This document shows positions 26,545 to 50,439 of a stretch of DNA of 64,000 bases, in pieces. This stretch comes from Candidatus Eiseniibacteriota bacterium (GTDB lineage: Bacteria; Eisenbacteria; RBG-16-71-46): contig JANLWX010000028.1 of the NCBI GenBank assembly GCA_031364845.1, forward strand, positions 5,346-69,345, written 5' to 3'. Every line of letters begins with the position of its first letter. The stretch's first letter is position 1. The notes below the pieces were generated by a model, which saw only the letters and a list, made by a program, of their open reading frames with translations, searched no databases and was not told where the DNA came from. The translations under genes were made by a program, and so were the position numbers.

Positions 26545-27381
<837 letters not shown>

Positions 27382-27395
27382 CCCGCACGCCCCGG

Positions 27396-28268
27396 ATTCT
27401 CCTCGCGCTCGCCGCCGTCTATTTCATCTGGGGCTCCACCTACCTCGCGATCCGCTTCGCGCTCGAGTCGCTGCCGCCGCTTTTGATGGCGAGCTCCCGT
27501 TTCACGATCGCCGGCGGCCTCATGCTCGCCGTGCTGATCGCGCGAGGCGTCGAACGTCCGACCCGCGAGCAACTGCGCTCGGCCATGATCGTCGGCGCGA
27601 TGCTGCTGTTCGTCGGCAACGGCTTCGTGTGCTGGTCCCAGCAGCGCGTGCCGTCGGGGATCGCGGCCCTCGTGATTTCCTGTGTTCCGATCTTCATGGC
27701 GGTGATGGACGCCGTGCGACCCGGCGGGCGGCGCCCCGCGCCGTGGGCCCTGCTCGGCATCGCCACCGGATTTGCGGGCCTCGTGCTGCTGATCGGCCCC
27801 GCGCAGGGCATGAGCGCCGTCGACCGCGTGGGTGCGGCGGGCCTGATGATCGGCTCGCTGTCGTGGAGCGCGGGATCGCTGTTCGCGCGCTCGGCGCCGC
27901 TGCCCGCGAATCCGCTGCTCGGGATCGCGATCCAGATGCTGACCGCCGGTGTGCTCTTGATGGTCGCCGGGCTCGCGTTCGGCGAAGGCGCGCGTTTCCA
28001 CATCGATGCCATCACGCCGCGCGCGATCGTGTCCGTGCTCTACCTCGCCGTGTTCGGCTCGATCGTCGCGTTCTCGTGCTACGTGTGGCTGCTCAAGCAC
28101 ACGACCGTGTCGGTCGCATCGACCTACGCGTTCGTGAACCCGATCGTCGCGTTGCTGCTGGGATGGGCGTTCGCCGGCGAGACGCTGGGAGCGCGCACGG
28201 TGGTCGCCGCGGCGGTCGTGATTGCGGGGGTGGCGATGATATGCATCAACCGTCCGAAGGACGGTTGA
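27396..28268 (+). CDS. EamA/DMT-family transporter (10-TM drug/metabolite exporter). Start uncertain: the conserved TM1 is encoded upstream of the first ATG/GTG/TTG
   Basis: The ORF track starts at TTG 27483, but the same frame reads through from directly after the pyrR stop as 'TRTPRILLALAAVYFIWGSTYLAIRFALESLPPLL', the canonical EamA TM1 and motif. There is no ATG/GTG/TTG in that stretch. I placed the start at ATT 27396 as a placeholder. Confidence 0.65.
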   Translation: MLLALAAVYFIWGSTYLAIRFALESLPPLLMASSRFTIAGGLMLAVLIARGVERPTREQLRSAMIVGAMLLFVGNGFVCWSQQRVPSGIAALVISCVPIFMAVMDAVRPGGRRPAPWALLGIATGFAGLVLLIGPAQGMSAVDRVGAAGLMIGSLSWSAGSLFARSAPLPANPLLGIAIQMLTAGVLLMVAGLAFGEGARFHIDAITPRAIVSVLYLAVFGSIVAFSCYVWLLKHTTVSVASTYAFVNPIVALLLGWAFAGETLGARTVVAAAVVIAGVAMICINRPKDG

Positions 28269-28308
28269 AGTAAAGCCAAGACTGCCAACTGTCCTCACGG
28301 ACAGTTGG

Positions 28309-29217
28309 CTATTTATGATAATGCGCATCCTTCTCACCGGCGTTGATCGCCACCGTGAGCAAATTCGTCTTCGGTGGAATCGGGCAATTGTAGTGGTCCG
28401 ACACGGCGCACGCGGGATTGTAGGCGTTGTTGAAGTCGAGCACCCAGCGTCCGTCGGGCAGTGCTTCGGGATCGACGTAGCGACCGACGTCGTAGGTCGT
28501 CTTGCCGGTGGTCGCGTCGCGGAAGAACACGCTCAAGCTCTTCTCGTCGACGCCGGGCTCGAGCAGCCGATTGGCTTCGAGTCGGCAGGGCTTCCCGTTC
28601 ACCTTGAAGTCGAACCAGCCGACCCGCACCGCGCGACGTTCGTTGCCACGCGTGGACTGGATGATCACGGTGTCGGCGGCGGGATTGGGTGTGAGCGCCA
28701 GCTCGTAGCGATACTTGAAGTCGACCGGGAACCACTCGAGCCCTTTGTAGCGGGCGAAGCCCGGGCTCTTCGGGTCGAACACGATGATCGCCGGGAAGCG
28801 CTGATGCGAGAGCCGCAGGGTGAAGCGGCCGACTCCGATCTGGCTCGGCGGCAGTGTGGCTTCCGTGCGCACTTCGTCCTTCACCTTGAAGGTTGCGCCG
28901 GGCTCCGCCGCGACGACGTGGAACGAGTCGCCTTCCACGATCACGCGCAGATGGTGGTTCGAGATCTCGGGATCGTCGATGCGCATGTCGTTGTGCTCGT
29001 CGCGGCCGACGGCCAGCATCGAGCGGTTGCCGAAATCGCGGCGCTGAACGGTCGCCAGATAGGACGTCGGCTTGGCCTTGAGAAACTCGAGAGTCTCCTC
29101 GCGGTCCTTGAGCGCTGCGGCCCGCAAGCTGTCGACCTGGGCAGGCGCGAGTTTGACCGGGGCCGCGGGGACGACACTGGTGGCAGCAACGACGGCGAGG
29201 GCGAGAAGGCTGATCAT
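28309..29217 (-). CDS. DUF1684-domain protein
   Basis: In frame with the 774-aa ORF 28309-30633, but only the last 302 aa look real. Start at MISLLALAVVAATSVVPAAPV. C-terminal 'YDVGRYVDPE...DFNNAYNPACAVSDHYNCPIPPKTNLL' is the DUF1684 signature. Confidence 0.8.
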   Translation of the reverse strand: MISLLALAVVAATSVVPAAPVKLAPAQVDSLRAAALKDREETLEFLKAKPTSYLATVQRRDFGNRSMLAVGRDEHNDMRIDDPEISNHHLRVIVEGDSFHVVAAEPGATFKVKDEVRTEATLPPSQIGVGRFTLRLSHQRFPAIIVFDPKSPGFARYKGLEWFPVDFKYRYELALTPNPAADTVIIQSTRGNERRAVRVGWFDFKVNGKPCRLEANRLLEPGVDEKSLSVFFRDATTGKTTYDVGRYVDPEALPDGRWVLDFNNAYNPACAVSDHYNCPIPPKTNLLTVAINAGEKDAHYHK

Positions 29218-29496
29218 GGGGCGCTTTCGTGGGTTGGGTGCGATGTTTCCGGGAGCTTTCGGGCGCGCGGCCGCGCCAATTATTTGCCGGGAGATGATAC
29301 CGCGCATCTTGCGGGTTGCGAACCCGCCCCCGAGTCCGGTAGCTTCCGCGTCGTCGGGTTGCAGAAGTTCCTTTAACGTGGCTCCGAGAGGCCGCAAAGG
29401 GGGAGTCTGATGAACGCTTCCGTCCTGTTGAATGCCCCGCCGTCCCCAAGCATCGAGGATGCGGGGATTTTTCATGCTCCGGCCGCGCCCCGTGTC

Positions 29497-30459
29497 ATGT
29501 CTTCGCATTTTCTGGGACTCGAGGGCATGCGGCGCGAGTCGATCGTCGAGCTGCTGGACGAAGCGGTGCGTTACCAGACGATGTTGAAGGCGGGCCGCGT
29601 CTCGGCGGAGCTGCGCGGGATGGCGGTGTGCCTCGCGTTCTTCGAGGACTCGACGCGCACGCGCGTGTCGTTCGATCTGGCGGCCCAGCGGCTCGGGGCG
29701 ATGCCGGTCACGCTGTTCCCTTCGGGCTCCTCGATGTCCAAGGGCGAGACGCTGCTCGACACGCTGACGACGGTGGTTTCGATGAACGTCGATCTCGTGG
29801 TCGTGCGCCACCAGTCGCCGGGAGCGCCGGCGTATCTCTCGCGCCATCTCGATGCGGGCGTGATCAACGCCGGCGATGGCGGGCACGAGCATCCGACGCA
29901 GGGGCTGCTCGATCTGCTCACCCTGCGCGAGGCGTGGCGCGGGCGATTCGAGAGCCGCCGCATCGCGATCATCGGCGACATCGCGCACTCGCGAGTGGCG
30001 CGCTCGGCGATCCATGGCCTGAAGGCGATGGGCGCGTCGGTGACCGTGGCCGGCCCTCGCACGCTGATGCCGGCCGGCATCGAAGCACTCGGGTGCACGG
30101 TCGCCGACACGGTCGAGGACGCGATGCGCGGCGCGGACGGCGTGATGGCGCTGCGCATCCAGCGCGAGCGCTGTACCCAGAGCCTGATTCCCTCGGCGGG
30201 CGAATACATGCGCCGGTTCGGCGTGACGGCGGCGCGGGTCGCACTGATGAAGCCGGAAGCCGTCGTGATGCACCCGGGCCCGTTCAATCGCGAGGTCGAG
30301 ATCGCCTCCGACGTGGTGGATGGGGCGCGCTCGGTGATCTGGCGCCAGGTCGAGAACGGCGCCGCGGTGCGGTGCGCGGTGCTGGCGCGCTGCGCGCGGG
30401 CGCGGCGTCCGGAGCGGACCGGGCTGACGTTCGATGTCGGGGAGGAGATCGCGACGTGA
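29497..30459 (+). CDS. pyrB: Aspartate carbamoyltransferase catalytic subunit
   Basis: 'STRTR', 'HPTQ' and 'HPGP' motifs. The N-terminus MSSHFLGLEGMRRESIVELL aligns with known PyrB N-termini, so ATG 29497 was preferred over the upstream Met at 29410. Confidence 0.9.
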   Translation: MSSHFLGLEGMRRESIVELLDEAVRYQTMLKAGRVSAELRGMAVCLAFFEDSTRTRVSFDLAAQRLGAMPVTLFPSGSSMSKGETLLDTLTTVVSMNVDLVVVRHQSPGAPAYLSRHLDAGVINAGDGGHEHPTQGLLDLLTLREAWRGRFESRRIAIIGDIAHSRVARSAIHGLKAMGASVTVAGPRTLMPAGIEALGCTVADTVEDAMRGADGVMALRIQRERCTQSLIPSAGEYMRRFGVTAARVALMKPEAVVMHPGPFNREVEIASDVVDGARSVIWRQVENGAAVRCAVLARCARARRPERTGLTFDVGEEIAT

Positions 30460-31802
30460 ACGCGATTCACATTCGCGACGCGCGCCACTGGCAGACCGGA
30501 GCGCCGTTGGAGCTGATCTGCGCGGGTAGTGTGATCGTCGCCGCCGGCGATGACGCCGCGGCATGGCTCGCCTCGGGCGCCGCGGCTGCGTTCGAGATCG
30601 ACACGCTCGATGCGGCGGGCGCCGTGCTCGCACCGGGGCTCGTCGATGTCCACGTGCATCTGCGCGAGCCTGGTCAGTCGGCGAAGGAGACGATCGCCAC
30701 CGGCACGCGCGCCGCGGCGGCGGGCGGATTCACCAGCATCATGTGCATGCCCAACACGAACCCGGTCGTCGATACGCCGGCCCAGGTGGAATGGGTGCTC
30801 CAGCGTGCGAAGGCCGCGGGCCACTGCCGCGTGCTCCCGATCGCGGCGGTCACCGTGGGCCAAAACGGTGAGCAGCTCACCGAGTTCCTTGCGCTGCGCG
30901 ACGCGGGTGCCGTGGCACTGAGCGACGACGGGCGTCCGGTGATGAGCGCGGCCGTGATGCGCCACGCGCTCGAGTACGCGACCCACGCCGGGCTCGCGAT
31001 CATCTGCCACGAAGAGGACCTCACGCTGCGCGGGGCGGGTCAGATGAACGAAGGCGCGGTCGCCACGCGGCTCGGTTACGCCGGCATTCCGAATGCGGCC
31101 GAGAGCGTGATGGTGCGGCGCGACTGCGATCTCGCGGCGCTGACCGGCGGACGCGCGCACTTCGCGCACCTCTCGTGCGCCGAGTCGCTCGATGGACTGC
31201 GCGACGGCAAGCGCCGCGGGCTCGGGGTGTCGGGCGAAACGTGTCCACACTACTGGACGCTCACGGACGATGCGGTGCCGGAGTTCGGCACGCAGGCCAA
31301 GATGAATCCGCCGCTGCGCACCGAGCGTGATCGCTGTGCGGTGATCGAGGCGATCGTCGACGGGACGCTCGACTGTTTCGCCACCGATCACGCGCCGCAC
31401 ACGGCACTCGAGAAGGACCAGCCGTTCGATGCGGCGCCGAACGGGATCGTCGGGCTCGAAACCGCACTCGCGCTCACGCTCACGCATCTCGTGCGGCCGG
31501 GCCACATCACGCTCACCCGCGCGCTCGAACTGTGGACCGATGCACCGCGGCGCCTGTTCGCGCTGCCGCCGGTCGAGTTGGCCGCGGGATTCCCGGCGGA
31601 TCTGGTGCTGATCGACCCGGACGAAGCGTGGGAGGTCGACCCGGAAGCCTTCGAATCGAAGGGCCGCAGCACGCCGTTCGCGGGCGCGCGAGTGACCGGG
31701 CGGGTGCAGGTGACGATCTGCGAGGGCCGGATCACGCATGCGCGGCCGCAGGCGCGGGCGGGCGGTCTGCGAACGACGATATCCGCGGGGGCGGCGGGCT
31801 GA
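30456..31802 (+). CDS. pyrC: Dihydroorotase
   Basis: GTG 30456 overlaps the pyrB stop (GTGA), with GGGGAGGAG upstream. 'VDVHVHLREPG' metal-binding HxH, 'FATDHAPH'. Confidence 0.9.
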   Translation: MNAIHIRDARHWQTGAPLELICAGSVIVAAGDDAAAWLASGAAAAFEIDTLDAAGAVLAPGLVDVHVHLREPGQSAKETIATGTRAAAAGGFTSIMCMPNTNPVVDTPAQVEWVLQRAKAAGHCRVLPIAAVTVGQNGEQLTEFLALRDAGAVALSDDGRPVMSAAVMRHALEYATHAGLAIICHEEDLTLRGAGQMNEGAVATRLGYAGIPNAAESVMVRRDCDLAALTGGRAHFAHLSCAESLDGLRDGKRRGLGVSGETCPHYWTLTDDAVPEFGTQAKMNPPLRTERDRCAVIEAIVDGTLDCFATDHAPHTALEKDQPFDAAPNGIVGLETALALTLTHLVRPGHITLTRALELWTDAPRRLFALPPVELAAGFPADLVLIDPDEAWEVDPEAFESKGRSTPFAGARVTGRVQVTICEGRITHARPQARAGGLRTTISAGAAG

Positions 31803-32082
31803 GTTTCGCGGTCGCGGCGCCTGCAAATCCTGCCGCGCAAAGATGATGGGGGCCGCCCGGGAACGACGATCTCGCCCGAGATTCGTAGGCGCCGGGAGCC
31901 GGGTGCTACCATGGCCACGCGGGCAGGCGAACAAAACGGGCCGGCCGGGGTATCAGATGTGGCGCTCCGGGCTAAGGCCCGGTGCCGGGCTCGCACACGA
32001 GGTTCAACGCCGCGATGACTTCGAGAAACTCCGGACGCGGCTGCACGTCCTGAACCTGACGGATCACAGGAGAAACCACCCG

Positions 32083-33957
32083 GTGCTGAACCTTCCGCTC
32101 CGGCGCGTGCGCGCGCTGCTGGCGTTCGCGCTGCTCGCCGCCACGGCGTCGTCGTGCGTGTACTACAACACCTTCTATCTGGCGCGGCGCTACTACGACC
32201 GCGGCACCGGCGGCGAGCCCTACACCGTCGACAAGGCGGGCGGCGGACAGGTCCAGGAGTTCGGCCGCTCGATCGAATATTCGAAGAAGGTGCTGTCGCA
32301 GTATCCCAAGTCCAAGTGGGTCGACGACGCCTATCTCCTGTGGGCGCGCTCGCTGCTCGGACAGGACGATCCGCTCCAGACCGTCAAGATGCTCGAAGCC
32401 TTCGACGGCCGCTTTCCGAAGAGTTCGCTGTCCGACGAAGCGCGTTTCTATCTGGGTGTCGCATATCGCCAGGCGCGCAAGTACCGGATCAGCGTGCGCA
32501 CGTTCGACGAGTTCCTCGAGAAGGCGCCCAAGCACGATCTCGCGCCGTACGCGTATCTCGAACGCGCCCGCGCGCTCGTGACGCTCAAGGAACCGGTCGA
32601 AGCCGCGGCCTCGGCGAGCCAGGTGCTCGAGCGATTTCCGAAGAGCAAGCTCGTCGATCGCGCGCGGATCGCGCGCGCCGACGCGCTGTTCGACGCGCAG
32701 CAGTTTCAGGCGGCGCGGCTCGACTATCAGGAACTGGGACGCCGCTCGCTGACCGACGAGGACCGGCTGCGCTATCTGTTGCGCGAGGTCGACTGTCTCG
32801 AAGCCGCACAGCAGTACGACACGGGGCTCGCGCTGCTCAAGGACGCCCTCTCGCACGAGCGCGAGCCGCTTCCGCCCGACACCACCGGCGGCAAGCCGGC
32901 GATCGTCCAGGCCACGCCAGGGTACGACCGTCATGGGCGGCTGCTGACGCGCATGGGCACCGTGCACCTGCGCCAGGGCAATCTCGACGAAGCGCTGTCC
33001 GCGTATCAGCGCGTGGTGCGCAACTATCCACGTGATCCGGTCGCGGCCGAGGCGCAGTACCGCACCGGCTACGCCTACGAGACGCTCGGTGACGACTTCG
33101 AGCGCGCGCGGCAGGAGTATCAGCGAGTGAAGGATCAGAGCGGGCAGGTCGGCTTCGGGCTGCAGGCAATCGACCGCCTGCGCACCCTCGATCGCATCGC
33201 CCAGTTCCGCAGCGCGGGCGGCGACTCCGCCGACCGGCGGGTCGAAGCGGCGTTCCTCACCGCAGAGCAGTATCTGTTCTCGGTCGAGAAGCCCGAGCGC
33301 GCGCTCGAGGAATACAAGAAGATCGCCGAGGAGAACGCGGGCACGCCCGCGGCGGCGAAGGCTCTGAATGCGCAGGCGTGGGTGCTGAGCCGCAAGCTCA
33401 ATCGCGCGGCAGAGGCGGATTCGCTGTTCTGGAACGTGGTGCACAACTTCCCGGCGACCGAAGCGCAACTCGCCGCGCGCGACTATCTCGAGATGTCGGG
33501 CAAATCGGTGCCCTCCGATCTCATCAAGCTGCCGGAGCCGCAGTACGCCGCGATGGACACCGCGATCATGTTGACGCAGCCACCCGACAGTTTGCCGGCG
33601 CTCGGCAAGCAGGTCGATTTCGGGCCCGTCGATTCGCTCGGCCTCAGGCCGTCGCCCGAGCCGATTCCGATGCCGCGCGAGTCGCGGCGGCCCTACGTGC
33701 CGGCCGATTCCGGTCCCGGATTCGCGGGCGACACGCCGGGACACGTCGCACCCGGTTCGACGGTGCGCGCACCCGAGCCGCCGCGCACCGGAGCGCGCAA
33801 GACGACTCCGCCGCCCGGTTCGCCCGCCGATTCGTTGCGGCGTGCGGCGTCGGCGGACTCCGTGCTGCGCAAGGCGGCATCTCCGGACTCCGTCTTGCGT
33901 GTCGCGCCCGTGCCCGTTCATCCGGTTCCCAGCGACTCGACGAGCGGAGACGAATGA
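32083..33957 (+). CDS. TPR-repeat outer-membrane lipoprotein (YbgF/BamD-like repeats) embedded in the pyr operon
   Basis: In frame with ORF 31738-33957. GTG 32083 is preceded by AGGAG at 10 nt and gives MLNLPLRRVRALLAFALLAATASSC (lipobox SSC). Multiple TPR-like helices. Pro/Ser-rich C-terminal tail. Confidence 0.7.
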   Translation: MLNLPLRRVRALLAFALLAATASSCVYYNTFYLARRYYDRGTGGEPYTVDKAGGGQVQEFGRSIEYSKKVLSQYPKSKWVDDAYLLWARSLLGQDDPLQTVKMLEAFDGRFPKSSLSDEARFYLGVAYRQARKYRISVRTFDEFLEKAPKHDLAPYAYLERARALVTLKEPVEAAASASQVLERFPKSKLVDRARIARADALFDAQQFQAARLDYQELGRRSLTDEDRLRYLLREVDCLEAAQQYDTGLALLKDALSHEREPLPPDTTGGKPAIVQATPGYDRHGRLLTRMGTVHLRQGNLDEALSAYQRVVRNYPRDPVAAEAQYRTGYAYETLGDDFERARQEYQRVKDQSGQVGFGLQAIDRLRTLDRIAQFRSAGGDSADRRVEAAFLTAEQYLFSVEKPERALEEYKKIAEENAGTPAAAKALNAQAWVLSRKLNRAAEADSLFWNVVHNFPATEAQLAARDYLEMSGKSVPSDLIKLPEPQYAAMDTAIMLTQPPDSLPALGKQVDFGPVDSLGLRPSPEPIPMPRESRRPYVPADSGPGFAGDTPGHVAPGSTVRAPEPPRTGARKTTPPPGSPADSLRRAASADSVLRKAASPDSVLRVAPVPVHPVPSDSTSGDE

Positions 33958-34856
33958 TGGCGACGGCCGCACTCGCGACTTCGTGGCGTCAGGCGACGGC
34001 CAGCGTTGCCGGTCAGGTGGAATACGGCGACGGGCACTGGTGGCTGGACCTCGATGTGCCCGCGCCATTCGAGCAGCCGGTGCCCGGGCAGTTCGTCCAA
34101 CTCCTGCTCGACGGAACCGAGACGGGATCGCTGCTGCCGCGCCCGATGAGTGTCGCCGGTGCCGCACCGATCGACGACGGATGGCGTGTGAGTTTCCTGT
34201 ACGCGCCGGTCGGGCAGGGCACGCGATCGCTCGCGCGACTGCGGGCGGGTGACCGCGTTGAAGCTCTGGGACCGTTGGGGCACGGGTTTCCGCTGGAGGC
34301 CCCGGGCACACCCGTGTTGATCGCGGGCGGACGTGGCGTGGCGCCGATGTTGTTCGCGGCGGATGTGCTGGCGCGTCAATCCGCCGCGGGGCCTCATCCG
34401 CGGCGGAGTCAGTTCGTGTTCGGAGCCCGGAGTGCGCAACAGCTCGTGGGCCTGGACGATGCGCGCGAGCGGCTGCAGCGCGCCGGTGGCGCGCTGTATA
34501 CGTGCACGGACGATGGGAGTCATGGGATGCATGGCAATGTATTGCAACTTCTCGCGAGAGAAGTTGCAGGCTTCGCCTCTCCGGTGGTGATCCACGCCTG
34601 CGGTCCGCACGGCATGCTGCGCGCGATCGCCGAGTGGGCGATCGCGCATGATGTACGCGCGCATCTGGCGATGGAGTCGGTCATGGCATGCGGCACCGGT
34701 GTGTGCCGCGGCTGCCCGCTGCCGCGCAGTGCGTCGGGTCGAAAAGCATGGACCAGTGCGATGCCGTCCCTGTTCGGCAACGCCGAGCACGCGATGTGCT
34801 GCACTGAAGGCCCGGTGTTCGAGGCGCGCGAACTCGACTGGGAGCACGTCGTTTGA
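33954..34856 (+). CDS. pyrK: Dihydroorotate dehydrogenase electron-transfer subunit (FAD/NAD-binding, 2Fe-2S)
   Basis: ATGA overlap with the upstream gene. 'LIAGGRGVAPM', C-terminal cluster 'CGTGVCRGC'. Confidence 0.85.
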   Translation: MMATAALATSWRQATASVAGQVEYGDGHWWLDLDVPAPFEQPVPGQFVQLLLDGTETGSLLPRPMSVAGAAPIDDGWRVSFLYAPVGQGTRSLARLRAGDRVEALGPLGHGFPLEAPGTPVLIAGGRGVAPMLFAADVLARQSAAGPHPRRSQFVFGARSAQQLVGLDDARERLQRAGGALYTCTDDGSHGMHGNVLQLLAREVAGFASPVVIHACGPHGMLRAIAEWAIAHDVRAHLAMESVMACGTGVCRGCPLPRSASGRKAWTSAMPSLFGNAEHAMCCTEGPVFEARELDWEHVV

Positions 34857-35944
34857 TGAACGCGATCGACGTGTCGATCGCGATTGGCGAGCTTCGGCTC
34901 GCCAATCCCATAATGGTGGCCTCCGGCACGTTCGGCTACGGCGACGAATACGCGCATGTCGTCGATCCGCGCACGCTCGGTGCTGTCGTGACCAAGACCG
35001 TGACGCTCAAACCGCGCGCGGGGAATCCGCCGACCCGGATCGCTGAGACCGCGGCGGGAATGCTGAATTCGATCGGACTCGAAAACGTCGGGCTGCAGAA
35101 GTTCCGCGCCGAGAAAGTGCCGAAGCTCGCGGGGCTCGGTGCGACGATCATCGCTTCGATCGGCGGGGATACGGCGTCGCACCTGGAGCGGTTGCTGTCC
35201 GCGCTCGCCGATGAATCGGCGATCGCAGGATTTGAAGTGAACTTCTCGTGCCCCAACGTTGCCAAAGGCGGAGCGCGTTACTGGACCGTGCCGCGGCGAC
35301 TCACGACCACGATGCGCCGCCTGCGCGCGATCACGAATAAGCCGCTGATCGCGAAGCTCTCGCCCGACGTGACCGCGATCTCGGAACTGGCGCGCGCATG
35401 CGAAGCCGGCGGTGCCGATGCACTGACCGCGACGAACACGTTCGTCGGCATGGCCGTTGATCTCTCGACCGGACGCTCCAAGTTGAACCGCGCGACCGGC
35501 GGGCTGTCGGGGCCCGCGGTGAAACCGTTGGCGCTCGCGCGCTGTTATGAGTGCGTGCAGGCCGTGCGGATTCCCGTGATCGGGTCCGGTGGGATCGTCA
35601 CCGGGCGCGATGTGCTCGAATTTCTGGCGGTCGGCGCCGCCGCGGTGCAGGTCGGGACGGCGTCGTTCCTGCGTCCGCGGGCTTCGGTCGATATCCTGGC
35701 CGAAATGCGAAGCATCTTGGCCGCCGCGGGGGCCGAGTCGATCGAAGCATGGCGTGAGCAGTTGATCGCGCGCGGCGCCGGACTGGCGCACGGGCTCGGA
35801 CCGTCGTTGGTTCAGCGGGCGGGGACGGCGGTGCGATCGGAATCGCGCGCCGATTCAAGTAACGGCGCGCACGCCACGAGTGGTGGTGAGCCCCGCGAGA
35901 TAGCGACGAGCGGCGCAAAGGCGGGAGAGTCCGAGCGCGGGTAG
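34856..35944 (+). CDS. pyrD: Dihydroorotate dehydrogenase catalytic subunit (class 1B)
   Basis: 'NPIMVASGTFGYGDEY', 'GLENVG', 'NFSCPN', 'GSGGIVTGRDVLEFLAVGA'. Start overlaps the pyrK stop. Low-complexity C-terminal tail. Confidence 0.9.
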   Translation: MNAIDVSIAIGELRLANPIMVASGTFGYGDEYAHVVDPRTLGAVVTKTVTLKPRAGNPPTRIAETAAGMLNSIGLENVGLQKFRAEKVPKLAGLGATIIASIGGDTASHLERLLSALADESAIAGFEVNFSCPNVAKGGARYWTVPRRLTTTMRRLRAITNKPLIAKLSPDVTAISELARACEAGGADALTATNTFVGMAVDLSTGRSKLNRATGGLSGPAVKPLALARCYECVQAVRIPVIGSGGIVTGRDVLEFLAVGAAAVQVGTASFLRPRASVDILAEMRSILAAAGAESIEAWREQLIARGAGLAHGLGPSLVQRAGTAVRSESRADSSNGAHATSGGEPREIATSGAKAGESERG

Positions 35945-36210
35945 CGCGACGGTCCGCGCGGCCAGTCGCCGCGTTGGGCCGCCGGACCGTGTCGCCCGCG
36001 ACCCCCCACAGGACGCAATTTAGTTGTTGACGGCTTCGCGAGCGCATCTTCGACAAACCCACCACGGCCTCCCATTCCGCGTCGCAATGCCCGGAGTTCC
36101 CGCGTTCGCGCGCTCAAGTCTTTCGATCGCGAAAAGTTCTCGCGACGCGTGCCGTGATGCAGCCTGCGTCGATCTCCGAGCGTCGAAAACCTGCAATGTA
36201 GAATCAACGC

Positions 36211-37452
36211 GTGTTCATCGCCCCCGCGACCGGATGCTTTGTCGTCACGCGCGGAGGGATCATGAGCAGGTACTTGCTTTGCCATCGGACCCATCAGGTT
36301 GTGCTTCAAGGTCTCGCGACGCTCGTCGCTCGAGGCTGCACGCACACGGCGGACCTCGTCGCCCACATTGGTGAAGTCGACAGCCGCAGGCTCTTCCTGC
36401 CGGCGGCACATCCTTCGATGTTCTCCTACTGTGTGAACGTGCTGCACTTCTCGGAGCAGGCGGCGTACAAGCGCATTCGTGTCGCGCGCATGGCGCGCAG
36501 GTTTCCCGCAATCTTCGACGCGCTCGCTGAGGGCCGCGTGCATCTGAGCGGCTTGTTCCTGCTCAAGGCATACATGTCCCGCCGCAACGCGGCGGAGCTT
36601 CTCGCGGCGGTGACGCACAAGAGTTGTCGTGAGATCGAGAAGGTTCTGGCGGAGCGATATCCGAAGGAGGACGTGGCGACGAGAGTGCGGGCTTTGCCGA
36701 ATTCGCGGGTGGTCGCGGCGGCACCTGTTGCCGGTCCGGATGCGGCCATCGTCGCGGAAACTCAAGAGCAACTGTCCGCGCGGACAGTCGCATCTTCGGT
36801 CCGCAGGACCGAAGAATGGGTGTCGCCTGGGGCTGACGCGAGTGCTGTTAAGGAGCCCGTCGCTGGGCTCGGACTGCTGACAGGCGAAGATTCTTCCGTC
36901 CTTCGGACCGAAGGGCGAAAGCCCGCGAAAGTCCAACCTCTCGCCCCGAAGCGCTACGCGCTTCAGTTGACGATGAGCCAGGAGCTGCACGACAAGCTGC
37001 GCCATGCGCAGGCGTTGCTCTCGCACACGTCGCCCTCAGGCGACGTGGCAGCCGTGCTCGAGCGCGCACTCGATCTGCTGATCACGAAGCTCGAGAAGAC
37101 GAAGTATGCAGCGACCGAGAACCCGCGCGCCATCAAAGCGAGCACCAGCGGAAAACCGCGACAGATCCCTGCCCACGTCAGAAGGGCCGTCCGCAAGCGC
37201 GACGGAGATCAGTGCACGTTCGTGAGCGACGACGGCCAGCGCTGTCCCGAGCGGCACTTTCTCGAATTCGATCACGTCAAACCCGTCTGCCGCGGTGGCG
37301 AAACCACGGCGGATGGCTTGCGCCTGAGATGCCGCGCGCACAATCATTACGAAGCGGAGAGATTACTTGGCGTTCTCTTCATGCAGCGCAAGCTGCATGA
37401 AGCACGGAGTCCACATCCGGTTCAAGAGCACGCAAGAGGAGTTCTTCCATGA
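36211..37452 (+). CDS. HNH endonuclease-domain protein (C-terminal HNH; N-terminal DUF222-like region), compositionally atypical
   Basis: C-terminal 'RRAVRKRDGDQCTFVSDDGQRCPERHFLEFDHVKPVCRGGETTADGLRLRCRAHNHYEAE' is a classic HNH. Start is GTG 36211 or ATG 36262 (GGAGGG upstream). GC and GC3 are visibly lower than the neighbours. The stop overlaps the pyrF start (ATGA). Confidence 0.75.
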   Translation: MFIAPATGCFVVTRGGIMSRYLLCHRTHQVVLQGLATLVARGCTHTADLVAHIGEVDSRRLFLPAAHPSMFSYCVNVLHFSEQAAYKRIRVARMARRFPAIFDALAEGRVHLSGLFLLKAYMSRRNAAELLAAVTHKSCREIEKVLAERYPKEDVATRVRALPNSRVVAAAPVAGPDAAIVAETQEQLSARTVASSVRRTEEWVSPGADASAVKEPVAGLGLLTGEDSSVLRTEGRKPAKVQPLAPKRYALQLTMSQELHDKLRHAQALLSHTSPSGDVAAVLERALDLLITKLEKTKYAATENPRAIKASTSGKPRQIPAHVRRAVRKRDGDQCTFVSDDGQRCPERHFLEFDHVKPVCRGGETTADGLRLRCRAHNHYEAERLLGVLFMQRKLHEARSPHPVQEHARGVLP

Positions 37453-38210
37453 ATAACCAAGAACCCTCCGCGCCTATCGGCGCGGGGCATGAAATTGCGA
37501 TCGCGTTCGACGTCGAAACGCTCGACCAGGCGCTCGCGCTCGATGAGCAACTCGGCGAGGGGCCGGAGTACGCGAAGGTCGGCCTGCAGCTGTTCACTTC
37601 AGCGGGCCCCGATGCGGTGCTCGCGCTGGTCGCGCGTCGTCGCCGTGTGTTCCTCGATCTCAAGCTGCACGACATCCCGAATACCGTGAGCGGAGCCGCT
37701 GCGGCCGCGGCACGGCTCGGTGTGCATCTGCTCACCGTTCACGCGGCGGGCGGGGAGGACATGATGCGCGCCGCGGTCGACGGTGTCGCGCGCGCCGGTG
37801 GTGAGACGCGCGTGGTCGCGGTCACGCTGCTGACGAGTCTCGATCCCGCGGCGATGCCGCCGGGATTCCCACGGCCCTTCGTGCTCGCGGAAGTGCAGGC
37901 CGAGATGCTCGCGGCGACCGAGCGCGCGGGGGCGCACGGAATCGTGTGCTCGGCGGCCGATCTTCCGGCGTTGCGCGAGCGGCATCCGGCGCCGTTCTAC
38001 TCCGTGACACCGGGCATCCGCCCCGCGGGCGGCGGTGTGCAGGATCAGAAGCGCGTCGCGACCATCACCGATGCGATCTCAGCAGGCGCCAGCCTGCTGG
38101 TGCTCGGCCGCGCGATCACTGCGGCGACCGATCCGCGCGCGGCGCTTGAAGAGGCGCGGAGTGAACGGGATCGGGCGTTGTCGGGAGTGCGTTCTTCGCA
38201 GCACGCGTAG
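37449..38210 (+). CDS. pyrF: Orotidine 5'-phosphate decarboxylase
   Basis: 'VFLDLKLHDIPNTV', 'LLTVHA', 'LLVLGRAI'. Confidence 0.9.
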   Translation: MNNQEPSAPIGAGHEIAIAFDVETLDQALALDEQLGEGPEYAKVGLQLFTSAGPDAVLALVARRRRVFLDLKLHDIPNTVSGAAAAAARLGVHLLTVHAAGGEDMMRAAVDGVARAGGETRVVAVTLLTSLDPAAMPPGFPRPFVLAEVQAEMLAATERAGAHGIVCSAADLPALRERHPAPFYSVTPGIRPAGGGVQDQKRVATITDAISAGASLLVLGRAITAATDPRAALEEARSERDRALSGVRSSQHA

Positions 38211-44813: not shown

Positions 44814-44849
44814 GCAACGCGCCGGGCGAAAATCCGCCCGGCGCGTTGC
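44814..44849 (+). terminator. Perfect 15-bp GC-rich hairpin ~80 nt downstream of the OPT transporter stop (U-tract-less terminator or REP-like element)
   Basis: 'gcaacgcgccgggcg aaaatc cgcccggcgcgttgc': the arms are exact reverse complements. Confidence 0.35.
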
Positions 44850-46843: not shown

Positions 46844-46936
46844 GCTGCTTCTACCTGCGATCGCATCAAGGCAGTGGGCGCCGGTCGCGTGTTCTATGAC
46901 TTGCAATCAAATCGATCCATCCAAGCGAGGTGCATC

Positions 46937-47839
46937 ATGCTCCGCACGCTTCTTTCGAGTCTCGTTCTGTATGCCACTCTGGTCGGAGCCCCCGCGTCGG
47001 CGCTTACGATCAACGTCGACGGCCTCGGTCCCGAAGGCGGCTATGGTGCGGCGCGCCGCGTGCCCCAGACATGCAACACTTCGGCGGGCAACAACCCCTC
47101 AGGTGGCGACAACCGTCACGCGATGGGGTCCGAGCTGAACGTCAGCGCTGCGGCCATCCTCAACGCGACGGTGTATGCGATGTATACGGGAAACCTCCAG
47201 AGCAACTTCACCAACCTCGAAGTATTCATCGACTGCATCGCCGGCGGCCAGAACACGTTGCGGGGCGACAACGCCATGGTTCCGCTCAATGGATTGAACC
47301 GCATGGCAGGTTTGACGTTCGATGCGGACTTTGAACCGGACTACTACATCACCATGAACTGCGGGGACTCGGCGGGAACTTACAGGTTCTCCGGACACTT
47401 CGTTACCCTGCCGACCTCAGGCGGAGGTGTCAGCACATACCTAGGGTCTACAGATGCAGCAATCACCGGGAGCGGTAATTCGCTCGGCATTCAGTTCGCG
47501 ATTCAGAATGGCAATGCTTCGGGCGTAGTTGCTGGATGCAGTCCGGCAGTCCTCTTGAACAATACTAGTCCGACTGGCGTCGAGATCGGCGTGCCACTTT
47601 CCGCAATCGGCAATCCCGGCGGATGCATCAAGGTGTGCGCGTTTATCAACCGACCCGCGCACGACTTCATCTTCAATCAGTTTATGGAGCCGCTTCCCGC
47701 GGGATCATGTGATCTCGGCGATCCCTCCACCGTATCCCTCGCGTCGATCGCGGGAGACCAGTTCTATGTGGCCTGCGAGGAACCGCCCACGCCCGCCGTG
47801 CGCGCCACTTGGGGCAAGGTAAAGGTGCTGTACAGGTAG
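46937..47839 (+). CDS. Hypothetical secreted protein (island cargo)
   Basis: Start MLRTLLSSLVLYATLVGAPASA (signal) with GAGG upstream. Gly/Asn/Ser-rich, several Cys, no family assigned. Lower GC. Confidence 0.6.
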   Translation: MLRTLLSSLVLYATLVGAPASALTINVDGLGPEGGYGAARRVPQTCNTSAGNNPSGGDNRHAMGSELNVSAAAILNATVYAMYTGNLQSNFTNLEVFIDCIAGGQNTLRGDNAMVPLNGLNRMAGLTFDADFEPDYYITMNCGDSAGTYRFSGHFVTLPTSGGGVSTYLGSTDAAITGSGNSLGIQFAIQNGNASGVVAGCSPAVLLNNTSPTGVEIGVPLSAIGNPGGCIKVCAFINRPAHDFIFNQFMEPLPAGSCDLGDPSTVSLASIAGDQFYVACEEPPTPAVRATWGKVKVLYR

Positions 47840-47877
47840 CCTCAGAGGTCAGGTCTTGTGGATCGAGGGGGATTTTC

Positions 47878-50439
47878 ATGGCCGTGAATCTGACGTGGAA
47901 GGATGTCTCGCAGTCGCCGTACAGCGGCTCGATCGAGAAGGCGATCAATGGCCAGGCGAGTCCATTCATCGCCCCCGTGCAGCCTGGTGACACGATCTAT
48001 GTCCCCGGCGGGAACTACAACATCGCGAACCCACTGCTCATCAACCAACCCAACGTCAGGATTGTTGGCGATGGCATGGACAAGACCAACATCATTTGCC
48101 CGTCCGGGTCATCGATTGCGGTATTCGATGTCACGGAGTCGTTCGCGACCCTTGAGGGATTCACGATCACGCAGGCCGATGCCGTCACCTCGGGGACCGG
48201 GGTGGGTGTGAGGATCGGTTCCAGCGCCACGTACATCCAGCAGACTACCCTCAGGCACATCAAGATCAAGTTCATGCCAAGCTACGCGCTATTCATTCCT
48301 GGCGGGTCCGAAGGGTTCTCGAACCAGCCCGTGAATGAGACCGTGATCGAGAACGCCATCTTGCACAACTCCCAGTCGGACGCCATCGTGTTCATCGGAA
48401 AAGGCAGTACGCTCGCCAATTTCAGAAACTGCAACATCAGCGCATACCACGTTCCCGGGGTATTGGCGGTCCAGATCATGAATGCGTCGCACATCACTTT
48501 CGATTCGTGTGAGGGCAATCCGGCGCCTGACAAGTATTGGCTGGACTTTGAGGTAGATCCGAACGACGCCGCCCCCACATCTGGCGGAGAGGCGCTTTCC
48601 ATCATTAACTGCGACTTGGAAGTTAATCGTGAAGAACCCGGAGCTGTGCGGCATTCCAGCTATTTCATTCACGCGAAGCGCGTGTCACATGTCTTGATTC
48701 AGAGCACGCTACTGTATTGGGCGCAGAAGGGTGTCTGGCTGGAAGAATGTAACAACGCCATTGTCCAGGCCAATGTGTTCATCGACATACGCGCGAATGG
48801 TAATACGGGCGCAAATCCTGCGGCATCGTCCTTGACGCTCACAGCATGCAAGGACACAGCGATCATCGGTTCGTGTTGGCAGAACACGGACTATAACACT
48901 GACTGGATTCCGGATGGCACGGTCACGGGCGAGAGACTCCCGTTGCCTTTCGAAGAGCTGAGCGGCACGACGGGGACGACGGTTTTGGAGCAGGGTGTCG
49001 CGCTACTCCCGACCTATGGTGCCGTGGCGTCCAGTTTGCCCAACAACGTAAAGACGGGGCTGCTGCACCCTGGCATGCTGGCTTACGATCTTAAGCGTCG
49101 CCTGCAATCGTGGGACGGCGCGAAGTGGGTGAGGGCGGTCACGGGCTACGAGCTCTTCATCGCGACCGACTACGCGGACATCCAGCTCGCCGTCGATGCG
49201 GCCAGCGCCGCGGCTACGGGCGGGGTTGTCTATGTCCCGGGGGCGACTTACAACGAGTCCTCGACGCCGAAGTACAGCGGCAATCTGATCGTGAACGCAC
49301 CGGGCAAGACGATTCGAATCATCGGCGACGGAGCGGGGAGCACAATTCTGCAGGCACCGTCGACAGGCCCCAACAACGACAAACCGATGCTGAGTCTTCG
49401 GTCCGATGACATCGCGATTGAAGGCATGACGTTCGATGGCTTCAATCAGGTCAGCACCGCCGCGGGCATCGTCATCGGTAACGCAGGTCAGGCAGTGTTC
49501 CGTCCACGTATGACCGACGTGACCGTAAGGAACAGTGCGGGATGGTCGATCTATGCACTCGGTTCGGAGGCCGCGGCGAGCTCCCACTACGGCCTGTTCG
49601 AACGCGTGCGCTGCACGGGCAATCGGAGCGCTGCCACCGGAGGCGTGTGGCTGGCGGTCGGGTGCTCGACCCACGTGTTCCGGGACTGCGTCGTGGAACA
49701 GTTCAAGGGCTACGGGGTGTTCATGGACCAAGTTGACGGTGCCGCACTGCTCGAGTGCCGGATCTTCGATGCCAGCGATGACACGCAGCCCTACTTGGGA
49801 CTGAACAACTCCCTGAACATCATCGTCACCGCGCTCAAGTGCCGAAACCAGGCACCTCCGACGCAAACGCAGAATGAGCGCTTCATCAAACTCACCGGCG
49901 AGAATCGCAGCATCAGCATCATTGCGCCGAAGCTCTATCGGGACCAGACCTCGAACCCGAACGGAAGCGATGTCAATAGCGGTGGGGGGATCGCTCGCTC
50001 CGTCATGATCCTGAGTCCTGAGATGAGGGTGCAAGGAGCCGCGACGGGAACAGACCACATCAAGATCGGGAGTTCATCGGAGTGCTTCATCATCGGCGGC
50101 GTGGTCTCGGCCTCCGGGGCCGCTACCCCATTTCCGGTCATGGAGATCGAGAGCCCGGCATCCCGCTTTGCGGTCGCGGGTCGGGCAACGATCGACTTCG
50201 GCAATGGGGCGCAGTCGGCGACCGTGAGCGTGTCCGATCTCCGCGTTGCCACGAACTCTCGAATCATGGCCGCGATGGCCTATGCCCCAACGCTGAATCG
50301 CGACCTGGACGAATTGGAGATGGACCACTTTGAAGTGCACGCGGGCAATGTCACCAACGGCGTGGGATTTGAGATCGTGGCCGACTGTCTGACAGGCTAT
50401 GGGCACGGCACTTACTTCGTCGATTACATCAGGAGCTGA
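47878..50439 (+). CDS. Tandem right-handed beta-helix protein (pectin-lyase-fold / tailspike- or polysaccharide-depolymerase-like), 853 aa, no signal peptide
   Basis: GAGGGGG then ATG 47878. Two paralogous halves: 'IAPVQPGDTIYVPGGNYNIANPLLINQPNVRIVGDGMDKTNIICPSGSS' and 'AAATGGVVYVPGATYNESSTPKYSGNLIVNAPGKTIRIIGDGAGSTILQAPS'. Repeated 'N..I..N.F.D' turns. Confidence 0.7.
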   Translation: MAVNLTWKDVSQSPYSGSIEKAINGQASPFIAPVQPGDTIYVPGGNYNIANPLLINQPNVRIVGDGMDKTNIICPSGSSIAVFDVTESFATLEGFTITQADAVTSGTGVGVRIGSSATYIQQTTLRHIKIKFMPSYALFIPGGSEGFSNQPVNETVIENAILHNSQSDAIVFIGKGSTLANFRNCNISAYHVPGVLAVQIMNASHITFDSCEGNPAPDKYWLDFEVDPNDAAPTSGGEALSIINCDLEVNREEPGAVRHSSYFIHAKRVSHVLIQSTLLYWAQKGVWLEECNNAIVQANVFIDIRANGNTGANPAASSLTLTACKDTAIIGSCWQNTDYNTDWIPDGTVTGERLPLPFEELSGTTGTTVLEQGVALLPTYGAVASSLPNNVKTGLLHPGMLAYDLKRRLQSWDGAKWVRAVTGYELFIATDYADIQLAVDAASAAATGGVVYVPGATYNESSTPKYSGNLIVNAPGKTIRIIGDGAGSTILQAPSTGPNNDKPMLSLRSDDIAIEGMTFDGFNQVSTAAGIVIGNAGQAVFRPRMTDVTVRNSAGWSIYALGSEAAASSHYGLFERVRCTGNRSAATGGVWLAVGCSTHVFRDCVVEQFKGYGVFMDQVDGAALLECRIFDASDDTQPYLGLNNSLNIIVTALKCRNQAPPTQTQNERFIKLTGENRSISIIAPKLYRDQTSNPNGSDVNSGGGIARSVMILSPEMRVQGAATGTDHIKIGSSSECFIIGGVVSASGAATPFPVMEIESPASRFAVAGRATIDFGNGAQSATVSVSDLRVATNSRIMAAMAYAPTLNRDLDELEMDHFEVHAGNVTNGVGFEIVADCLTGYGHGTYFVDYIRS

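Follow-up and report, generated by a model that had tools for sequence, protein, structure and literature searches.

Genes of the DUF222/13E12 type, which encode proteins with an HNH domain, are among the commonest unexplained repeats of bacteria. In Mycobacterium tuberculosis, 13E12 genes are reported to be breakpoints of large inversions (PMC13157036). Other described systems that bear on the present case are free-standing HNH homing genes of phages and introns, the REP/RAYT and IS200/IS605 systems, in which short palindromes flank the gene of the presumed acting protein, and the IscB/OMEGA nucleases. Homing enzymes typically have targets of ~22 bp, and homodimers of the I-CreI type read 22-bp pseudo-palindromes. 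Here we describe a predicted HNH nuclease gene that lies between pyrD and pyrF in a 64,000-nucleotide stretch of a Candidatus Eiseniibacteriota genome (contig JANLWX010000028.1; the whole stretch is called the window). The best joint explanation of what we found, to which we assign a probability of about 0.6, is that the gene is part of an autonomous inserted unit and that a palindrome carried in frame within it is the nuclease's own DNA site. Loci of relatives are designated L and proteins P; P0001 is the window protein.

The locus resembles DUF222/13E12 genes in its architecture, with helices in the N-terminal domain and HNH at the C-terminus, and in being a repeated unit of ~1.4 kb with several copies per genome and rearrangement breakpoints inside the gene. 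The units measured here are 1,387-1,398 bp long, and copies are mosaic, although the breakpoint could be an assembly chimera. The hosts differ in not being Actinobacteria, about a quarter of the relatives add a RuvA_C-like tail, and only ~120 residues align with DUF222, whose Pfam model spans ~300. The window protein and its N-terminal 166 aa have no match to Pfam DUF222 (PF02720) even at E ≤ 10, and 3 of 115 relatives match it faintly (best E 1.4e-3); a control Rhodococcus DUF222-HNH protein matches with E 2.7e-12. Alignment of the family profile to a single Rhodococcus DUF222-HNH protein with hhalign returned 84.6% (E 6.8e-6) over 117 collinear columns. The original prediction of a DUF222-like N-terminus plus HNH, made from the sequence of the window alone, stands as an architectural resemblance by probable remote homology and falls as membership of Pfam DUF222. 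On these profile comparisons, we place the family beside DUF222/13E12 as a remote sister and not within it.

Free-standing homing genes of phages and introns are similar in that they stand alone, have their own expression signals, are patchily distributed and leave empty alleles. The present family differs from them because it has no fixed target locus and is chromosomal, multi-copy and not found in phages, and because its presumed site is intact inside and beside the gene and not split by it. With REP/RAYT and IS200/IS605 it has in common palindromes that flank the gene, solo copies between convergent genes and lineage-specific arm sequences. The protein, however, is an HNH nuclease and not an HUH/Y1 transposase (profile searches found no HUH or Y1 domain in the window protein or relatives), the main palindrome is inside the ORF (open reading frame), and there is one solo site in 64 kb, whereas REPs occur in hundreds and the gene itself is multi-copy here. 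The likeness to IscB/OMEGA consists of a long conserved non-coding stretch upstream of the ORF and weak similarity of the HNH segment, the only part matched by the NCBIfam IscB model NF040563 (E 1e-3 to 2e-8 in relatives; 18 bits for the window protein and 18-34 bits overall, against a cut-off of 175). Unlike IscB/OMEGA, the locus has no RuvC domain and its leader is not unusually structured, and an Rfam scan of 35800-37700 found nothing near gathering score and no HEARO/omega RNA.

The palindrome (Table 1) was first flagged by a terminator scan as an inverted repeat inside the ORF, where the DNA encodes the disordered linker between the two folded domains. Every close relative has a repeat of the same kind at the same place, with other inner bases. 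Perfect palindromes (stem of at least 7 bp, 4-nt loop) were counted between +400 and +700 nt in 97 loci. At least one was present in 81 of these, at a density of 3.7 per kb in the linker against 0.42 elsewhere, and the positional histogram peaks at aa 160-200 only. A locus has between 0 and 3 of them, and relatives often carry them in tandem. The consensus, CAACTnGCC-CCGG-GGCnAGTTG, is 22 bp long; the general pattern is CAACTnnCC-N4-GGnnAGTTG. Its outer arms (CAACT/AGTTG) are conserved and, together with position and reading frame, alike across phyla, and all four Watson-Crick pair types occur among its inner 3-4 bp. One and the same reading frame is used in 116 of 134 palindromes, which encode the peptide QLxPGxV.

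Which residue stands sixth in the peptide depends on the third base of the Leu codon, so that the DNA determines the peptide rather than the other way round. There are 99 perfect palindromes in 75 of 88 intact ORFs, whereas synonymous resampling that kept the peptide yielded 4.1 ± 1.8 (maximum 9 in 200 trials). In a 58-row alignment, 94.3% of the cells are paired versus 68.7% in shuffles, and double-sided changes number 115 versus 27, a level that none of 500 shuffles reached. Because a perfect inner 6 bp was the condition for including a row, the result for the inner pairs is circular; the three outer pairs, which were not selected on, are paired in 43, 44 and 57 of the 58 rows. A single compensated pair distinguishes L003 from its paralogue L004. 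Among 27 single mismatches there are 4 GT/TG and 7 AC/CA, and this lack of a G.U bias argues for a constraint at the level of DNA. An arm with CTGTCC is common to one clade (the window, L013-16 and the peptides of P0002-4). A LexA box was considered, given CTGT-N8-ACAG in the window palindrome, and rejected because the inner bases are not the same in the paralogues of a single genome, nor in different phyla. The one bona fide DUF222-HNH gene examined (Rhodococcus) lacks the linker palindrome, and we found no description of an in-frame palindrome in the literature on DUF222, REP13E12, HNH and palindromes. We infer that the palindrome is the DNA site recognized by the unit's own predicted nuclease.

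Related palindromes also occur outside the linker. A search of the window for 22-mers with up to 3 mismatches to the linker palindrome found three sites, where 100 shuffles give 0.00. The copy at the left edge of the unit is identical to the linker copy at 19 of 22 positions, loop included. A solo match at 28286-28307, ~8 kb from the HNH gene, is accompanied by a compensated variant at 28246-28268. Among the relatives, left-edge palindromes are present at -293 to -372 in L006/7, L013-16, L088 and L094, and cognate palindromes at the end of the ORF in L019 and L048.

The window ORF is one resident copy of an autonomous gene unit of ~1.4-1.5 kb. The extent of the unit was read from pairs of paralogues within one metagenome-assembled genome (MAG). 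L006 and L007 are similar over 1,398 bp, beginning 6 bp before a left palindrome (CAACTGGAT-TCAC-ATCCAGTTG) and ending exactly at a degenerate right copy. L003 and L004 are similar over 1,387 bp, and the similarity among the paralogues L003, L004 and L008 begins exactly at TTGACA. The repeated unit takes in 220-300 bp upstream of the ATG. An edge palindrome comes first in it, then a leader (~250-300 bp) that contains a TTGAC box, and then a gene encoding the N-domain, the linker and the zinc-finger HNH domain.

The leader of the window copy has a TTGACG box at 36027-36032, with AATTT just before it. Its DNA is similar (blastn) to that of L013/L014 from 36017 and to that of L015/L016, which are in another genomic context, from 36137. 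The TTGAC box aligns in all leader relatives compared; a sigma-70 promoter scan called no promoter in the leader, and the box is a conserved motif only. The predicted fold of the leader RNA is not unusually stable (z = +1.48), and a structured leader RNA was dropped from consideration on that ground. A short stem just upstream of the start codon is present in both the minimum free energy and centroid folds, and this stretch is conserved in L013-L016. Sequestration of the Shine-Dalgarno sequence by this stem is a possible function.

The family is very large, uncharacterized and chromosomal, and occurs in soil and sediment bacteria. A word-indexed search found 936 relatives among the scored candidates, which are unnamed or, in some JGI records, named 'McrA'. 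At a threshold of E ≤ 1e-3, a profile of the N-domain matched 15,698 clusters (50% identity), of which 10,336 remained at E ≤ 1e-10, and a scan of one metagenome found >525 relatives. Genome matches place the family in Candidatus Eisenbacteria, Myxococcota, Acidobacteriota, Limnocylindria and others. No family member was found in PLSDB plasmids, GenBank phages or IMG/VR, where there were bare HNH-motif matches only. There are 2-3 copies per MAG; an Eisenbacteria MAG has three and a Myxococcota MAG two. P0003, a 74% paralogue of P0001 encoded outside the window, is on a contig that equals that of P0001 in length (123,651 bp) and was read as the same contig. About 100 relatives are in unrelated contexts and, apart from same-site copies, none is near pyr genes. 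The gene had been predicted to be free-standing and selfish, and a multi-copy, patchy distribution with several paralogues per genome is what a selfish gene would be expected to have. The term homing-type, also used in that prediction, does not fit relatives at unrelated loci, and the two same-site copies are explained by descent, as judged from synonymous divergence (dS, below).

Sequence appears to have been exchanged between copies. Identity between P0001 and P0003 is 95-100% in the first 100 aa, 70-80% thereafter and 37% at the tail. L013 and L014, on near-identical contigs from different metagenome samples, match at all but 2 positions of a 3.3-kb stretch until an abrupt divergence sets in at L013:3532, after which L013 continues into pyrF and L014 into a minus-strand ACPS gene. 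The C-terminus encoded by L014 is 100% identical to that of P0003. The divergence starts exactly at a hairpin (36946-36966 in the window), in which L013 and L014 differ by a compensated pair. Either the copies recombine, by conversion or rearrangement, or homogenized N-terminal halves let assemblers cross from one copy to another; both imply exchange. Some copies show signs of decay: 37 residues are missing from the end of the N-domain in P0003, and P0005 has lost the CTF...C segment of the zinc site. Between L033 and L059, whose flanks are 85-88% identical, the syntenic HNH unit is far more diverged than the flanks and falls below the reporting threshold from about -278 to +1266.

The unit was inserted into a pyrimidine operon. 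Empty and occupied sites were found by a PyrF search and by reading the contigs of the closest relatives, which carry the names Eisenbacteria or Eiseniibacteriota. At the empty site L099 (PyrF 87% identical), the order is pyrK-pyrD-pyrF, and pyrD and pyrF overlap by 8 bp. At L101 and L102/L103 (PyrF 77% identical), the overlap is 4 bp, and the order carB-TPR-pyrK-pyrD-pyrF-ECF sigma is that of the window. In window positions, L099 is homologous up to 35846, which lies in the variable C-terminal tail of PyrD, and again from 37497, such that ~1.65 kb in the window stands where L099 has 141 bp. The gene had been described as wedged into the operon, and with three empty-site relatives this is borne out as an insertion into an ancestrally contiguous pyrD-pyrF junction; related pyr operons do not all carry it, L099, L101 and L102/L103 being empty.

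The same junction is occupied in L013 (PyrF 94% identical; 93.9% at the protein level), where the order is pyrK-pyrD-HNH-pyrF. L014 has pyrK-pyrD-HNH followed by different genes. Between the window and L013, dS is 0.62-0.82 for the HNH gene and 0.43-0.66 for the flanks. This similarity implies that the two copies are orthologues that descend from one insertion. The ratio of nonsynonymous to synonymous divergence (dN/dS) is 0.25-0.26 in both folded domains of the HNH protein, which is therefore still under selection, and 0.10-0.15 in the pyr genes; the linker is nearly saturated (dN 0.93). These rates indicate that the gene was inserted once, inherited vertically and kept functional.

The overlap of the HNH stop codon with the pyrF start was noted in the original prediction and is present as ATGA. 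Its reading as preserved downstream coupling does not survive comparison with L013, where the HNH stop is at 4054 and the pyrF ATG at 4174, 120 bp apart. The window lacks ~150 bp present in L013 at the right edge, and its ORF runs on into the TGA over the pyrF ATG. Because the sister locus has a spacer, the overlap is to be read as secondary, the result of a deletion at the right edge. The pyrF gene has its own Shine-Dalgarno sequence, GAGGAG, at 37436-37441, and its first 14-16 codons (MNNQEPSAPIGAGHE) are missing from PyrF of the empty sites (in which MSEF is followed directly by AIAFDV). Both these first codons and the Shine-Dalgarno sequence were, on this alignment, supplied by the inserted DNA. 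A hairpin within the new codons is present in L013 with the same stem and a different loop.

The longest open frame of the HNH gene, 36211-37452 (+), has 413 codons from a GTG. The frame is intact and contains the predicted HNH motif (EFDHVKPV...RCRAHNHYEAE). The real start is almost certainly the ATG at 36262, because GGAGGG precedes it at 36253-36258, the database protein P0001 (396 aa) matches the product from this ATG with 100% identity and coverage, and the start residues M-x-x-Y-x-L-x-H are common to all homologues. The stretch from GTG to ATG is kept as DNA in relatives, and its reading frame is not. The ~265 bp of non-coding DNA noted upstream, which begin after the pyrD stop (35944), come to 266 bp if the GTG is taken as the end and to 317 bp if the ATG is. 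An antisense ORF of 404 codons, 35812-37026 (-), covers the leader and the N-terminal half of the gene; we take it to be a usual spurious frame of GC-rich DNA, as the codon-position GC pattern favors the plus-strand frame.

The gene was also predicted to be lower in GC and in GC at third codon positions (GC3) than its neighbors, and hence foreign. The deficit is real and modest in size (GC 0.628 and GC3 0.722, with GC3 of 0.764 in pyrK, 0.804 in pyrD and 0.794 in pyrF); GC3 is second lowest among the 35 long ORFs of the window (mean ~0.82). It is, however, a trait of the family. In 27 of 29 family loci GC3 is below that of the flanks, by 0.066 on average, and the genes otherwise track host GC. 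The deficit is therefore no sign of recent arrival, and the insertion is older than the split between the window and L013. The A/T-ending codons remarked upon earlier (CAA, CTT, GTT) are in part the arms of the linker palindromes.

The AlphaFold2 (AF2) model of the protein has an N-domain of seven helices (aa 10-135), a disordered linker (aa 140-220) and a C-domain (aa 222-385). Its mean confidence score (predicted local distance difference test) is 80; it is ~97 for the N-domain and below 50 for residues 161-219. Foldseek searches with the modeled C-domain returned HNH domains only (McrA, Gme HNH, Cas9 HNH) and with the N-domain no structural match; a profile search of PDB sequences found no match for the whole family or for the N-domain. 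D337, H338 and N361 are invariant in 115 relatives, and C318, C328, C357 and H360, a predicted structural zinc site, are nearly so. Pfam HNH (PF01844) is sub-threshold for the window copy (E 0.012-0.05) and is matched by 29 of the 115 relatives (best E 1.8e-7), and PHROG HNH families match the window protein (E 1.8e-5). Sequence and AF2 model together predict that the C-domain is an HNH/beta-beta-alpha-Me nuclease domain. A C-terminal module resembling RuvA_C (RuvB-binding domain III) follows an Ala/Lys/Glu-rich spacer in 30 of 115 relatives, including P0013 and P0100, and is missing from the sub-lineage of the window. PADLOC defense models gave no match for P0001 and P0013 and one marginal match for P0100 (REase_II, E 0.0075).

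Taken together, a recent ancestor received one copy of the unit at its overlapping pyrD/pyrF junction. This copy has since been inherited vertically under purifying selection and has exchanged sequence with paralogues, and in the window genome a deletion at the right edge put its stop codon onto the pyrF start. In the mechanism that we propose, the palindrome may be read by a homodimer that recognizes two identical half-sites, or a structure-specific enzyme may act on an extruded hairpin or cruciform; either would lead to perfect symmetry, compensated change and lineage-specific arms at every site of a genome. Cleavage or nicking at the palindrome would start recombination between copies or with solo sites, and this would spread and homogenize the unit, shuffle its N- and C-terminal halves and cause rearrangements. 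The inner bases of the palindrome would be the determinant of specificity and co-evolve with the protein of each lineage. We think it rather unlikely that this amounts to a new mobile or recombining unit, in which the HNH nuclease copies the unit to solo palindromes, homogenizes paralogues and swaps N/C cassettes, with the palindrome as a lineage 'address'.

A number of points weigh against the reading of the locus as an autonomous unit with its own DNA site. We found neither terminal inverted repeats nor target-site duplications nor a recombinase, movement is not documented, and the empty and occupied junctions are too diverged to fix the insertion point to the base. Edge palindromes of the cognate type are present in only ~10 of 97 loci, the right-edge hairpin of the window differs in sequence from the linker palindrome, and there is one solo site in 64 kb, of which the part at 28284-28309 also fits an ordinary bidirectional intrinsic terminator. 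Many perfect hairpins are in ordinary genes (pyrK, pyrD), and therefore some hairpins here need no link to a nuclease. The apparent recombinant L013/L014 could be a chimera of metagenome assembly across an identical N-terminal half. Finally, it is a paradox for a nuclease gene to hold its own cleavage site, unless the enzyme cuts only under certain conditions.

The main rival for the palindrome is a role in RNA or transcription, in which an mRNA hairpin attenuates expression before the toxic HNH domain and the edge hairpins insulate or terminate. The terminator-like solo copy between convergent genes would suit it, edges at ~-300 and ~+1150 are where insulators or terminators would be expected, the likely Shine-Dalgarno-sequestering stem suggests tight control of expression, and the lineage uses many hairpins in coding regions. 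We nevertheless find this role doubtful: the stems are perfect in Watson-Crick terms and G.U is not tolerated (4 GT/TG versus 7 AC/CA), neither the internal nor the upstream copies are followed by a U-tract, and an RNA role does not require identical arms at all sites of a genome or clade. It is very unlikely that the palindromes are independent parasitic mini-elements, or by-products of template switching, that gather in a permissive disordered linker. Copy numbers of 0 to 3 with tandem copies, the very fast evolution of the linker (dN 0.93) and the general excess of perfect hairpins (28 vs 7.4 expected) are in keeping with such an origin, but outer arms, position and reading frame are constant across phyla, and palindromes are rare outside the unit (0.42 per kb of any type, few of them of the CAACT type).

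For the gene, the main rival is a domesticated cellular nuclease, for example a damage-induced enzyme of junction- or structure-specific repair, that is immobile and occasionally duplicated and whose place among pyr genes is incidental. Purifying selection (omega 0.25), vertical inheritance at the pyr site, the RuvA_C-like domain of 30/115 relatives, the absence of the family from the plasmids, phages and viral contigs searched and the lack of transposase-like ends all agree with this, as does the SOS induction of 13E12 genes in M. tuberculosis (PMC13157036). The patchy distribution with empty sites in close relatives does not, nor do the several diverged copies per genome in unrelated contexts, a repeated unit with its own leader and sharp edges, or a gene that evolves far faster than its flanks and has decaying copies (P0003, P0005), and we regard domestication as improbable. 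A classical site-specific homing endonuclease gene that targets the pyrD/pyrF junction, as originally predicted, would explain why the junction has both empty and occupied alleles and why the gene is free-standing. Yet dS explains the occupied loci by descent, all other relatives are at unrelated sites with copies <60% identical at many loci, and no similar gene was found in phages or introns. The empty junction carries no cognate palindrome, on which account homing into a palindrome there was rejected, and we consider classical homing to this junction refuted. A type IV (McrA-type) anti-phage or restriction nuclease is hardly more credible. Some JGI records use the name 'McrA' for relatives, the best fold match in the PDB is EcoKMcrA (E 0.13) and the gene is fast-evolving and mosaic; but the likeness is confined to the HNH core, the N-domain is DUF222-like and unrelated to the DNA-binding domain of McrA, PADLOC gives no match, and no defense-island neighbors were seen at the loci examined.

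The original prediction was right in outline, in that this is an inserted, selfish-type, DUF222-like HNH gene; it erred in taking the gene for a homing one and a recent arrival, and in what it took the overlap to mean. What most deserves to be followed is the palindrome. A non-actinobacterial sister family with >10,000 clusters at 50% identity here offers a concrete candidate cis-site, a palindrome that is kept against codon preference, undergoes compensated changes and recurs at unit edges, and this turns 'function unknown' into a direct binding or cleavage experiment. If the family were indeed a new mobile or recombining unit of the kind considered above, the same logic might explain the behavior of 13E12/DUF222-HNH repeats. 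The locus also offers a clean case from nature in which a selfish gene split an essential operon junction and deletions later re-compacted it; in the course of this, pyrF gained a new start region from the inserted DNA.

Table 1. Positions in the window of the HNH gene, its parts, its flanking genes and the associated palindromes and hairpins.
Feature	Position	Strand	Basis or remark
Solo tandem pair, TCAACCGTCC GAA GGACGGTTGA (28246-28268) and GCCAACTGTCC TCAC GGACAGTTGGC (28284-28309)	28246..28309		Between convergent EamA and DUF1684 genes
pyrD (dihydroorotate dehydrogenase 1B catalytic subunit), left flank	34853..35944	+	Pfam, NCBIfam
Degenerate left-edge palindrome, CGACGGTCC GCGC GGCCAGTCG	35947..35968		3 bp past pyrD stop, ~311 bp upstream of ATG
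Conserved non-coding leader	36017..36261	+	Belongs to the unit that is repeated; no spacer of the operon
Possible Shine-Dalgarno-sequestering stem, CCCCCGCG (36221-36228) pairing with CGCGGAGGG (36250-36258)	36221..36258	+	Sequence
HNH nuclease gene (predicted)	36262..37452	+	396 aa from ATG 36262
All-helical N-domain, aa 1-138	36262-36675	+	AF2
Disordered linker, aa 139-220	36676-36921	+	AF2
In-frame linker palindrome, CAACTGTCC GCGC GGACAGTCG	36769..36790		Encodes QLSARTV
Second, tandem hairpin, TCTTCGGTCC GCA GGACCGAAGA	36793..36815		Encodes SSVRRTEE; GTCC...GGAC core in common
C-terminal domain, Zn site and HNH, aa 221-385	36922-37416	+	AF2, alignment
Hairpin GAAGCGC TAC GCGCTTC	36946..36966		Start of C-domain, KRYALQ; lineage-specific
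Catalytic-motif residues D337/H338	37270-37275	+	Alignment
Catalytic-motif residue N361	37342-37344	+	Alignment
Hairpin with 11-bp stem, CTTCATGCAGC GCAA GCTGCATGAAG	37377..37402		End of HNH domain, FMQRKLHEA; lineage-specific
ATGA overlap, HNH stop/pyrF start	37449..37452	+	Sequence
pyrF (OMP decarboxylase), right flank	37449..38210	+	Pfam, NCBIfam
Right-edge hairpin CCGCGCC TATC GGCGCGG	37468..37485		Inside new PyrF N-terminal codons

The lineage generally seems rich in perfect palindromes, coding DNA included. The whole window has 28 perfect hairpins (stem of at least 8 bp) versus 7.35 expected from block shuffles. The hairpin at the end of the HNH domain is present in L013 and not in L014, L015 or L017. 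The 3' end of pyrK, which was identified by Pfam and NCBIfam and reaches 34856, and the 5' end of pyrD have perfect hairpins with stems of 9-11 bp at 34476-34496, 34543-34568, 34621-34647, 34861-34882 and 34882-34907. In L013/L014 the stems of these hairpins are kept and their loops changed (GCGA/GAGC, GAGTG/CTTTG, TTCG/TGAC). One of them, TGCAACTTCTC-GCGA-GAGAAGTTGCA, encodes QLLAREV and has the CAACT/AGTTG outer arms of the HNH-family palindrome. The longest hairpin of the window, GCAACGCGCCGGGCG AAAATC CGCCCGGCGCGTTGC, has a perfect 15-bp stem and lies in an intergenic gap at 44814-44849.

The pyrimidine cluster is also broken elsewhere. A PyrR-like phosphoribosyltransferase gene (26839-27381) and an EamA transporter gene (27483-28268) are followed by a convergent DUF1684/FHA gene (28309-29220, -) and then by pyrB (29410-30459). 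A gene for a TPR/YfiO-like lipoprotein (31738-33957) lies between carB and pyrK, as it does in relatives. The lowest composition in the window (GC ~0.60, GC3 0.71-0.75) is that of two adjacent ORFs at 46844-50439, one of which has no Pfam match and the other of which encodes a 908-aa protein resembling beta-helix/pectate-lyase proteins; this may be another acquired segment.

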